Below the pieces are notes generated by a model. It was given only the letters and a program-made list of their open reading frames with translations, was not told the DNA's origin and did not search any database. Both the position numbers and the translations under genes were made by a program. Positions 2,740 through 5,505 of a DNA stretch of 15,778 nt are shown here, piece after piece. Origin of the DNA: Promethearchaeota archaeon (GTDB lineage Archaea; Asgardarchaeota; Lokiarchaeia; Sigyniarchaeales; SOKP01); assembly GCA_048938445.1 (NCBI GenBank), contig JBHLME010000106.1, forward strand, positions 1 to 15,778, read 5' to 3'. The stretch's first letter is position 1. Each line of letters starts with the position of its first letter.

Positions 2740-2857
2740 AAGTTTTTTCTTTAGATTCCAATAAATTATGATTTAAATATATTATATACCAAAATATAGT
2801 TTAAAAACCTAATTGACGAATTATTTAAATTAAAAATTTATAAAAGTTCTAATTAAT

Positions 2858-2865
2858 AAAAAAAA
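2858..2865 (-). terminator. U8 terminator tract after the SECIS
   Basis: Eight Ts on the minus strand just 3' of the SECIS structure. Confidence 0.45.
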
Positions 2866-2871
2866 TGCTTT

Positions 2872-2939
2872 ACCGATACCATTGCATTGGTTAGTCTTTC
2901 TGCGACTATTATTTTCTCGCAAAAATCATTCTAATCGGT
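2872..2939 (-). promoter_or_regulatory. SECIS element (eukaryote-like/Lokiarchaeal AUGA...GA K-turn type) at the 3' end of the hdrA-vhuD operon
   Basis: Minus-strand RNA: ACCGAU UAG AAU GA UUUUUGCGA GAAAAUAAUAG UCGCAGAAA GA CUA ACCA AUGCAA UGGU AUCGGU. It has a 9-bp upper stem, an A-rich loop, a tandem GA/GA core with a 3-nt bulge and a UAG/CUA lower stem, and it directly follows a gene with in-frame UGAs. Confidence 0.88.
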
Positions 2940-3371
2940 TTTTTTCTCTTTTTTTCCCTTGAAGGGATTGCTGCCTATCTTTTCAATAATTCCAGATATT
3001 CGTATCGATTCATTTTGAAATCTTTGACCTTCTGCTGCGCTACAGTGAAACATTTGTATTCTTTCGGGAGAAATTCCCGTGGTTTTTAAAATCTCCCTTA
3101 CATATTCAACATTTCTCTCTGCGACTAAATTACCCGTTTCGTAATCACATTCCCCAGGATATCATCCAGCAACCATAATACCATCAGCACCATTCCCAAT
3201 CGCTCTCATCATGAGGCTTGGAGTAACTCTTCCCGTGCAATTTATCCTAATTGGTCTTATCGTTGCGGGGTATTGTGCACGTATGGTTCCCGCCATATCT
3301 GCACCCCCATATCCTCATTTCCAGCATAAAAAGGACAAGATTTTAGTACTATTTTCAGCTATTTTACTCAC
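2931..3371 (-). CDS. vhuD: F420-non-reducing hydrogenase iron-sulfur subunit D (MvhD/VhuD), selenoprotein with 2 Sec (U19, U70); absent from the ORF track
   Basis: Hand translation: MSKIAENSTKILSFLCWKUGYGGADMAGTIRAQYPATIRPIRINCTGRVTPSLMMRAIGNGADGIMVAGUYPGECDYETGNLVAERNVEYVREILKTTGISPERIQMFHCSAAEGQRFQ...KTD*. MvhD motifs CxxC..GADxAG, CxGR, GADG..GCxxGxCxY.GN and SAAEG are present. TGA codons at 3317-3315 and 3164-3162 replace conserved Cys. The start (GTG 3371) is uncertain by a few codons. Confidence 0.93.
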
Positions 3372-3375
3372 CTCT

Positions 3376-5343
3376 TTATACCTCCTCTAGAATTGCATCT
3401 ATTTGTTTTTCATATTGAGGTTCTCGATAATATCTAAGAGTGATTGCTTCTGATGGACAACTCGCTAAACATGTACCGCATCCCCTGCATAAGATTTCAT
3501 TCACTAAAGCACCATCTTCTTGAACTGTTATGGCATTGTATGGGCAATTTAATTCACATAATCCACATTTTGCACAGCGTTCTTTCTCCACTGTTGCTCG
3601 AATTAATAGTATGCGATATTTATCCTTGCTCATTAACCTTGCTAATGAAGATGCTGCTGCTCTTCCTTGAGCTATGGATTCTGAAATTGATTTAGGTCCT
3701 TGTGCAACTCCGGCAAGAACTATTCCAGGTATCTTAGTATCAATTGGATTTAATCGCGAATGATATTCTTTAAAGAATCCATCTTGACTAACCTCAAGTT
3801 TTAATAGTCTACCAAGGTCTTCGACTCCTCTTGAGGGAACCATTGCGGCGGACAAAACAATCAAATCATATTCCATTTCTTGAGGTTTTAAGGAATCACG
3901 CAATGTATTATGAATCATTACTTTTAGATTGTGTGTTTCAGCATCTTCCTCAATTGTTGAGATGTTTGTCCGAATATACTTGATTCCTTCCTTTCGGGAG
4001 GCCGTGAAGTATTCTTCATAATCTTTTCCAGAAGCTCGCATATCCATGTAGGCAACAGTTATGTCCGAATCGGGATAATGTTGTTTGATGAGTTTGGTAT
4101 TTTTAATACTAATCATGCAACATACACCAGCACTACAATATGTATTTCTCTTGAGATCTCGTGAGCCCACGCATTGAATGAATAAAATTCTCTTAGGTCG
4201 TTTCCCATCTGAGGGGCGAACTAGATGTCCAACAGTAGGACCGTTTGGAGCTAAAATACGCTCGAGTTGCATTTGAGTAATGACATTTGGATAAATTCCA
4301 TATCCTAGATAGCCATGATCGGGGATATATTCATCCCAACCAGTTGCTACCACGATTGATCCTACTTTTATGCTTTTTAATTCATCTTTTTGATTGAAGT
4401 CTATGGCCTTTAGTTCACATACACCCTTACATAGCTCACATTTGATACATTTAGTCATATCTATTTGAGCCATTGAGGGAACAGCTTGCGCAAAAGAGAC
4501 ATAAATAGCTTTTCTAGCATTTAATCCTTCGTTAAATTCATCATAAGCGTAAGCAGGGCAAACTTCTGAACAAGAACCACAACCATTGCAGTCTTGTGTA
4601 ACATATCTAGCTCTTTTTCTTATTTTCACCTCAAAGTTCCCTACGAATCCTTTTACATCATCAATATCACTATATGTATAGATGTTTATACCTGGTGTTC
4701 TTGCAGCTTCAAGCATTACGGGACCGAGAATTCATATACTACAATCATCAGTAGGAAAGGTTCTATCTAATTGGGCCATTTTTCCACCAATAGTAGGACT
4801 TTTTTCTACCAAATGAACTTCATATCCTTGTTCGGCTAAATCTATGGCAGCGGATAAACCAGCAACACCTCCCCCAATCACGAGTGTTCTTTTAGTGATA
4901 TCAACTTCCTTTACTAAGATTTTTTCTAAGACTGCTGCTCTTGCGACTGCTGATTTGATTGCATCTTCTGCTACTTTTTGTGCTCCAGGTTTATCATTTC
5001 TATGCACGAAACTTGCATGTTCACGAATATTCACGAATTCTAAATAAGATGGGTCTACACCCATTGATTCTAGAACACTTTTGAAAACTGGTTCATGTGT
5101 TTTTGGAGTACAAGATGCTAAGACTAATCGGTTAGCCTTGCTTTCTATCATTTTTTCTTTGATAAATTCCGCTCCAGGTTCAGTGCATAGACTTATGTAA
5201 TCAGAAGCAGCAACTACATTAGGAAGTGTTCTGGAGAATTCTGCTAATGCGCCACAATCGACTATTTCTGCTATATTGATACCTCACTGACAGACAGCTA
5301 CAAAAATTCGAATTTCTTCTTCAGTTTTTTCTGTATCTACCAT
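3376..5343 (-). CDS. hdrA: Heterodisulfide reductase subunit A (flavin-bifurcating HdrA), selenoprotein with 2 Sec (U20, U204), 655 aa
   Basis: Track ORFs 4732-5151 and 3376-4716 and an upstream segment from ATG 5343 are all in one frame, joined by TGA at 5286-5284 (IFVAVCQUGINIA) and 4734-4732 (RTFPTDDCSIUILGP). Motifs include GGGVAG FAD-binding, SCTPKTHE, VNIRE, CVGSR..YCS..CC and two pairs of CxxCxxCxxxC ferredoxin motifs. Confidence 0.95.
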
Positions 5344-5505
5344 TGCATATCATTTAATTTTACTTTTTTGTATTTTCCACCTAAATATTTTTTTTAATAC
5401 TAATAATATTTTAAATCTCTGAAATTTTATAAAATTGGCTAAATTTTAAATTAAGAATATTTTATATATATGTTATAAAATAAAAAAGAAAACTTTAGAA
5501 TATGC

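Follow-up and report, generated by a model that had tools for sequence, protein, structure and literature searches.

Gene pairs in which hdrA and vhuD appear to share a single selenocysteine insertion sequence (SECIS) are known from Asgard archaea. Mariotti et al. (2016, Mol Biol Evol, PMC4989117) described such pairs in Lokiarchaeota, interpreted them almost word for word as we do here, and called the arrangement unparalleled. Huang, Xiao, and Zhang (2024, ISME J, PMC11227280) extended the analysis to more than 400 Asgard genomes, and a 2026 review (PMC13188914) repeats the shared-SECIS reading. We analyzed a contig of 15,778 nucleotides (nt) from a Promethearchaeota archaeon (GenBank assembly GCA_048938445.1, contig JBHLME010000106.1), hereafter the window, which carries an hdrA-vhuD pair with four in-frame UGA codons on its minus strand. 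The pair is very probably a two-gene Asgard selenoprotein operon of the Promethearchaeota/Lokiarchaeia type, with all four UGAs served by one 3' element, a lokiSECIS. Because Mariotti et al. state this interpretation and Huang et al. extend it, it is not novel; the shared-SECIS finding is a correct rediscovery of what has been known since 2016. The window adds one clean, well-conserved example and leaves current knowledge unchanged, and the same genome adds internal controls, namely an hdrA that lacks vhuD and has its own SECIS and cysteine (Cys)-type fused forms that have none. It would be unusual biology for one 3' signal to recode the UGAs of two cistrons at a range exceeding 2 kb, and a shared SECIS bears on the origin of the eukaryotic selenocysteine (Sec) system from an archaeal one.

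The locus agrees with the Lokiarchaeota pairs described in PMC4989117 in gene order, the very short spacer, a multi-Sec HdrA that includes the site near residue 200, two Sec residues in VhuD, and an hdrA that never ends in UGA. It also shares with them a single element behind vhuD made up of AUGA, a stem of 9 bp, a loop of 11 nt whose final bases are AG, and GA, as well as a SelB gene about 5 kb from the tRNA-Sec gene on the opposite strand. It differs in belonging to another genome, in a loop that starts with G, and in a tRNA-Sec insert located in the D-loop, whereas a T-loop intron is described there. The Asgard type I eukaryotic-SECIS-like (eSECIS-like) elements of PMC11227280 likewise have a GA_GA core, an upper stem of 7 to 15 bp, an apical loop of 8 to 20 nt, and hdrA plus frhD/vhuD sharing one structure; the model given there differs in comprising only the core, upper stem, and apical loop, with a "lower stem" mentioned. 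Eukaryotic form 1 SECIS elements, including that of the multi-UGA SelenoP, resemble the element in their 3' position, AUGA...GA core, A-rich loop, kilobase range, and service of several UGAs, whereas our element has a shorter stem, would sit on a bicistronic mRNA, and has no match among the Rfam SECIS models. The SECIS elements of hdrA and vhuD in Methanococcales and Methanopyrus share the selenoprotein families, the VhuD Sec positions (PDB 9sfi_K), and the location in the 3' untranslated region. They are of the GAA_A bulge type, in which an invariant asymmetric GAA/A bulge separates a lower stem rich in GC from a short upper stem of GC pairs, in contrast to the element here, which has no GAA/A bulge and is not GC-rich, its stem being an uninterrupted 9-bp helix of mostly A-U or G-U pairs.

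A further relative is the fused HdrA-MvhD protein HdrA2 (NCBIfam NF040770), with which hdrA and vhuD are collinear at profile positions 1 to 643 (779 bits for HdrA) and 644 to 773 of 777. Here there are instead two cistrons in different frames, separated by TAA and 4 nt, and the Cys-only fused forms of the same genome (contigs C186, C182, and C214) have no SECIS. A hidden HdrA-VhuD fusion was considered and rejected, as the frames are offset by 7 nt and the spacers of orthologs vary among 4, 7, 8, 9, 10, 13, and 15 nt.

Under translation table 11, hdrA breaks up into open reading frames (ORFs) of 139 and 446 amino acids (aa), and of vhuD there remain two fragments, of 44 and 40 aa, so that the usual gene callers would split or miss both genes. 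An earlier sequence-only reading of the window had anticipated this for standard annotation, and had also placed UGAs at HdrA codons 20 and 204 and VhuD codons 19 and 70, all on conserved Cys positions. Translation with UGA as Sec and alignment to 5odc_A, 9sfi_K, and 5odc_D agree with that assignment (Table 1; X in 9sfi_K is a nonstandard residue). The translated HdrA matched 5odc_A with an E value of 3.9e-201 over residues 9 to 652, and its Pfam families were Pyr_redox_2, NAD_binding_8, and Fer4, that is, an FAD/NAD-binding fold with 4Fe-4S ferredoxin domains. NCBIfam HdrA models scored 551 to 779 bits, under their curated cut-offs of 1100 to 1400. VhuD matched the full-length Pfam domain FlpD (PF02662) at 141.6 bits (cut-off 22.3; E value 1.6e-41) and both solved delta subunits, 9sfi_K (E value 5.3e-34) and 5odc_D, and scored 142 bits against NCBIfam VhuD, under the cut-off of 215. 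The identification is firm: the predicted products are the heterodisulfide reductase flavoprotein subunit and its iron-sulfur partner of the MvhD type. Only AGAG separates the hdrA TAA from the vhuD GTG, and a GGAGGT lies 8 nt 5' of that GTG, within the final hdrA codons.

The element behind vhuD has the features listed for lokiSECIS by Mariotti et al. (2016): AUGA, a 9-bp stem, an 11-nt loop, the loop bases, GA, and the position behind vhuD. Its AUGA core begins 1 nt 3' of the vhuD TAG stop and lies 2,355, 1,803, 386, and 233 nt from the UGAs of HdrA codons 20 and 204 and VhuD codons 19 and 70, respectively. In the published consensus, the first five loop nucleotides prefer A and the last is G, mostly preceded by A (PMC4989117); the loop here, GAAAAUAAUAG, starts with G, has A at four of its first five positions, and ends in AG. 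A strict pattern, which required ATGA, two 9-nt arms with 9/9 paired around an 11-nt loop, and then GA, had no match in 2000 mononucleotide shuffles of the 2.8-kb operon. A covariance model, R1, built from 27 orthologous elements scored the element at 79.9 bits (E value 8.7e-20). Compensatory changes were found at 8 of the 9 pairs of the stem among those 27 sequences, and at 9/9 when 75 distinct sequences were compared. A scan of the whole window with Rfam at an E value of ≤10 returned six chance-level matches, none of them to a SECIS or tRNA family.

Several lines of comparison indicate that this element is the only one. With filters off, R1 found no second SECIS in the window (next best 9.9 bits, E value 0.93, outside the operon) and none inside hdrA (best 8.3 bits, E value 2.5). 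Among 30 orthologous loci there were 27 full matches, one match clipped by a contig end, and two loci that stop short of the site; no further match appeared in them except a 15-bit antisense echo of one element. The picture was the same in 80 further vhuD loci from public records, mostly titled as Promethearchaeota or Promethearchaeia MAGs (metagenome-assembled genomes), where 79 had exactly one R1 match, directly behind vhuD. Sliding RNAalifold across the 27-sequence operon alignment gave -12.4 kcal/mol at the SECIS against an all-window mean of -0.48 (standard deviation 1.5) and a best coding window of -3.44, and no other conserved RNA structure emerged across the operon. The projected spacer between hdrA and vhuD is 4 to 15 nt in 29/30 loci (the exception, at 38 nt, is a locus whose alignment started late), so that a SECIS of 70 nt has no room between the genes. 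Stop codons follow the same division. The hdrA stop in the 30 loci is TAA (13) or TAG (17) but in no case TGA, while 10 of the 28 complete vhuD genes have a TGA stop, this TGA abutting or forming part of the AUGA core. That hdrA never ends in TGA and vhuD often does repeats the published argument for a minimum distance between UGA and SECIS (PMC4989117).

Genes for HdrA that lack a neighboring vhuD provide a control. The genome of the window holds, on contig C214, an hdrA paralog with five UGAs and no vhuD, and a SECIS of its own follows this gene directly (C214:62706-62774, 50.8 bits, core AGGA). In another family of the order, an hdrA without vhuD (L143; G004:C153:12100-15400) likewise has a SECIS directly behind it, at positions 2160 to 2260 of that locus. 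No SECIS match was found for the Cys-only HdrA paralogs of the same genome, two of them unfused and three fused to an MvhD-like domain. The single match per operon, the absence of other structure, the short spacer, the stop usage, and these vhuD-less controls together argue for one 3' SECIS serving both cistrons. The sequence-only reading had proposed this sharing, with the sole SECIS-like hairpin at the end of vhuD some 2.35 kb from the first UGA and no room for another in the 4-nt gap, and had named a covariance scan for further copies as a check; the gap, the single element, and the empty scan all held, and the comparison across orthologous operons supports the proposed sharing.

Two details of the vhuD-less genes may be added. 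The C214 paralog (C214:60712-62774, equivalent to L023:1213-3275) has its UGAs at codons 16, 74, 200, 301, and 385, and its SECIS is followed by an HdrC-like gene; a pattern scan had suggested that this hdrA has no SECIS, which was rejected when the covariance model found the AGGA-core element. The hdrA of L143 has one UGA, at position 204, and the gene terminates at the UGA that forms part of the AUGA core of its SECIS.

The least unlikely alternative, although we consider it very improbable, is that hdrA has its own hidden signal, a coding-region structure near each UGA in the style of a bacterial SECIS or a eukaryotic Sec redefinition element (SRE), and that the element behind vhuD serves vhuD only. 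In-frame SECIS elements of the bacterial type are known in general, and a relaxed pattern scan did find a few weak AUGA...GA hairpins in the operon, at 4296-4334, 3818-3869, and 3165-3209. These hairpins are within chance, however (shuffles yielded 1.26 on average and never more than 8), and do not have an A-rich loop. R1 scored at most 8.3 bits in hdrA and found nothing of the kind in the 30 orthologous operons. The 50 to 100 nt after each UGA folded at 0.0 to -0.2 kcal/mol by RNAalifold, no better than typical coding windows, and the hdrA genes without vhuD have their SECIS at the 3' end.

A slightly less probable alternative still is that Sec is not inserted at the UGAs, or at any rate not at the hdrA ones, and that these codons either terminate translation or are read as Cys or Trp by a near-cognate tRNA, independently of any SECIS. 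The point in its favor is that a lokiarchaeal SECIS was nonfunctional in Methanococcus maripaludis (Peiter et al., 2025, PMC11881835), the only functional test of such an element that we found in print, and one made in a heterologous host. Conservation speaks against it. A UGA stands at each of the four sites in 27/27 aligned orthologous operons, all from other genomes of the same order, in frames that are otherwise intact and conserved, and the sites fall exactly on Cys/Sec positions of solved structures. Relatives differ in whether position 20 of HdrA is UGA or a Cys codon: it is a Cys codon in 6/6 orthologs of greater distance, while position 204 remains TGA (6/6), and in one of the distant orthologs (L141) VhuD position 70 is Cys. 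Within a sample of 121 genomes of the order, 120 had an HdrA match at an E value of ≤1e-100, and nearly all the close HdrA orthologs had one to four in-frame TGAs. A SECIS always accompanies the UGA-containing genes, and the genome encodes Sec machinery. A third idea, that the UGAs are assembly or sequencing errors or mark pseudogenes, has in its favor the metagenomic source of the assembly and is effectively refuted by identical codons in dozens of independently assembled genomes, in frames that are otherwise open and highly conserved.

A global reassignment of TGA was also considered and rejected. TGA terminates 3 of the 10 ORFs in the window, two genes for ABC transporters being among these 3, and across the genome it closes 320 of 1820 long open frames.

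The Sec machinery, which the sequence-only reading had proposed to look for, was largely recovered. The assembly spans 4.63 Mb in 256 contigs at 29.6% G+C and is an estimated 96.5% complete. It encodes a predicted archaeal-type Sec trait consisting of SepSecS (471.7 bits) and SelD (181.3 bits, with one in-frame TGA), both over their curated cut-offs, SelB (243.3 bits by genome search and 244.5 bits by protein scan, narrowly over the cut-off of 242.25 and far over its EF-Tu scores), and a tRNA-Sec with anticodon UCA. The tRNA-Sec gene (C108:40439-40558, 120 nt) was recognized solely by its fold, a 9/4 cloverleaf with a minimum free energy of -50.3 kcal/mol. The cloverleaf combines an acceptor stem of 9 bp with a T stem of 4 bp and a long variable arm; its anticodon loop reads CUUCAAA and its discriminator base is G. 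Within the D-loop, an insert of roughly 30 nt, taken to be an intron, forms a hairpin of its own. The SepSecS gene follows the tRNA-Sec gene directly, the SelB gene lies some 5 kb upstream on the other strand, and the tRNA-Sec interval overlaps the start of contig C157 by 73 nt.

The mechanism that we consider likely runs in four steps. The two genes would most likely be transcribed as one mRNA ending at the T8 run behind the SECIS. All four in-frame UGAs would be decoded as Sec through Sec-tRNA(UCA) brought by the archaeal SelB/EFSec, and the sole recoding signal would be the one eukaryote-like lokiSECIS whose AUGA follows the vhuD stop by 1 nt. This element would have to act over 233 to 2,355 nt, including on ribosomes that are translating the upstream cistron, and thus across the hdrA UAA.

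Several observations weigh against this reading. That the genes are co-transcribed, that Sec is inserted, and that the SECIS acts on hdrA are what we infer from the sequence; a search for RNA sequencing runs covering positions 2750 to 5450 of the window listed none, and the heterologous test of Peiter et al. was negative. The assembly is a MAG whose contamination is estimated at 8.17%, so that only binning ties the Sec machinery to the operon. The PSTK-like kinase, for which selen_PSTK was the best family (E value 1.1e-46), scored 159.3 bits against an NCBIfam cut-off of 290.5. The tRNA-Sec scored 39.5 bits with Rfam, under the gathering score of 47, and ARAGORN called no tRNA for the window and, genome-wide, no tRNA-Sec. 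The apical loop opens with GAAAA, whereas AAAAA is favored in the published consensus. One of the 80 public vhuD loci (L091) had no R1 match, and T5 runs inside the operon, at 5306-5302 and 3332-3328, could end some transcripts. Finally, contig C53 of the same genome carries three tandem same-strand UGA-bearing genes, each with its own SECIS; because these genes each keep an element, sharing would be a trait of the hdrA-vhuD pair and no general rule.

The element extends beyond its core. In 27/27 orthologs the CCGA 5' of AUGA and a UCGG further 3' are invariant and complementary, with 4/4 pairs formed whether CCGA is coding or noncoding, and between GA and UCGG lies a mini-hairpin, P3, with compensatory changes at 2/5 pairs in A2 and 3/5 in A3. 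Paired cells amounted to 95.3%, compared with 86.1% in shuffles (0/500 reached the observed value) and 29 to 46% in slid controls. Constrained folding of 14 diverse elements, taken from hdrA-vhuD paralogs, hdrA alone, selD, vhuU, unnamed genes, and two other families of the order, produced P3 in 14/14 and P3 together with the closing helix P1 in 12/14, whereas flank-shuffled controls gave 397/1400 and 213/1400, respectively; two of an original 16 elements had been dropped when the core finder failed on both. The P1 sequence is wholly different between classes (CCGAU/AUCGG, AAUGUGUUA/UAACACAUU, and CUCGAG/CUCGAG), the last being the GC-rich closing helix of the L143 element, which keeps the three-helix layout. 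The G-C dinucleotide of the P3 loop is invariant in 27/27 vhuD-type elements.

It is conceivable, though we regard it as doubtful, that the functional Asgard SECIS is a three-helix element of about 70 nt, composed of P1, the AUGA/GA core with the 9-bp P2, and an obligatory P3, and so reaches beyond the published hairpin of about 35 nt. Neither a closing helix nor a 3' hairpin is mentioned in the text of PMC4989117, its supplement aside, and the word "hairpin" is absent from the main text of PMC11227280. A literature search for SECIS elements with a three-way junction returned nothing on Asgard SECIS by title or start of abstract, and "lokiSECIS" occurred only in the 2016 paper. The extended structure is possibly new, and we treat it as a lead and not as a result. 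Were P3 required, it could be the docking site of an archaeal SECIS-binding factor, and it could help explain the failure of the lokiarchaeal SECIS in the heterologous test, the construct of which we have not seen. The placement of P3 on the strand opposite AUGA recalls, in what we presume to be a structural likeness, k-junctions. No SBP2 is known in archaea according to PMC4989117 and PMC9723677, and likewise PMC11881835.

Table 1. Coordinates of the hdrA-vhuD operon and its SECIS in the window
Feature	Position	Strand	Description	Basis
hdrA CDS	3376..5343	-	655 codons + TAA (3378-3376), ATG at 5343, UGA at codons 20 and 204	Translation with TGA = U
UGA, HdrA codon 20 (predicted Sec)	5284..5286	-		Aligns to Cys in 5odc_A
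UGA, HdrA codon 204 (canonical HdrA Sec site)	4732..4734	-		Aligns to Cys in 5odc_A
hdrA-vhuD junction	3372..3385	-	GGAGGT 3385-3380, TAA 3378-3376, spacer AGAG, then GTG	Direct reading
vhuD CDS (MvhD/FlpD family)	2931..3371	-	146 codons + TAG (2933-2931), GTG at 3371, UGA at codons 19 and 70	Translation with TGA = U
UGA, VhuD codon 19 (predicted Sec)	3315..3317	-		Aligns to X in 9sfi_K, Cys in 5odc_D
UGA, VhuD codon 70 (predicted Sec)	3162..3164	-		Aligns to X in 9sfi_K, Cys in 5odc_D
Complete SECIS	2871..2940	-	P1, AUGA core, P2, apical loop, GA, P3	Covariance model R1, pair counts, constrained fold
SECIS P1	2938-2934 with 2877-2873	-	CCGAU paired with AUCGG; overlaps final two vhuD codons	
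SECIS core	2929-2926; 2896-2895	-	AUGA; GA	
SECIS P2	2925-2917 with 2905-2897	-	9/9 bp, one G-U	
SECIS apical loop	2916-2906	-	11 nt, GAAAAUAAUAG	
SECIS P3 mini-hairpin	2891-2888 with 2881-2878	-	Loop AUGCAA	
T8 run	2858..2865	-	Likely archaeal transcription terminator, 6 nt 3' of SECIS	Function predicted
Upstream intergenic region	5344..5505	-	AT-rich, presumed operon promoter	Direct reading; promoter presumed

Downstream of the operon, at positions 115 to 2739 of the window, three consecutive minus-strand ORFs encode 214, 245, and 266 aa, and a Pfam scan of them gave no family at an E value of ≤0.001. Elsewhere in the genome and the order, other selenoprotein candidates came to light. The interval C53:11414-12423 (equivalent to L027:915-1927, with homologs in L144 to L163) represents a widespread protein family of about 150 aa with an invariant adjacent Sec-Sec pair, here the UU family. 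Its two subtypes have the motifs S-S-[A/S]-U-G-U-U and G-C-U-U. With one member as query, the family was found in 92/121 genomes of the order, with two or three in-frame TGAs in every near-full-length match listed. Each of the 20 homologs retrieved preserves the UU pair, and in 18/20 a lokiSECIS, recognized at the level of the pattern, is present no more than 22 nt past the stop. Pfam gave no match, and an AlphaFold model (pLDDT 81) had no Foldseek match in the PDB at an E value of ≤0.001. The best VIA-align hits were beta-grasp sulfur carriers (CysO and SAMP1) at a Z score of 6.6, a weak similarity within the range of common arrangements. Identity with the published Prx-like family was rejected by motif, and the UU family is not named in the portions of the Asgard selenoproteome papers that we covered.

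The same contig holds a 74-codon ORF (C53:12554-12778, equivalent to L027:2055-2279) with four in-frame UGAs, its own SECIS (R1, 36.7 bits), and no significant Pfam match. On contig C24, a vhuD-type SECIS (C24:4375-4444, 70 bits) has no hdrA or vhuD upstream, and the only upstream candidate is a short ORF ending in ...CPUS about 30 to 45 nt before the element.

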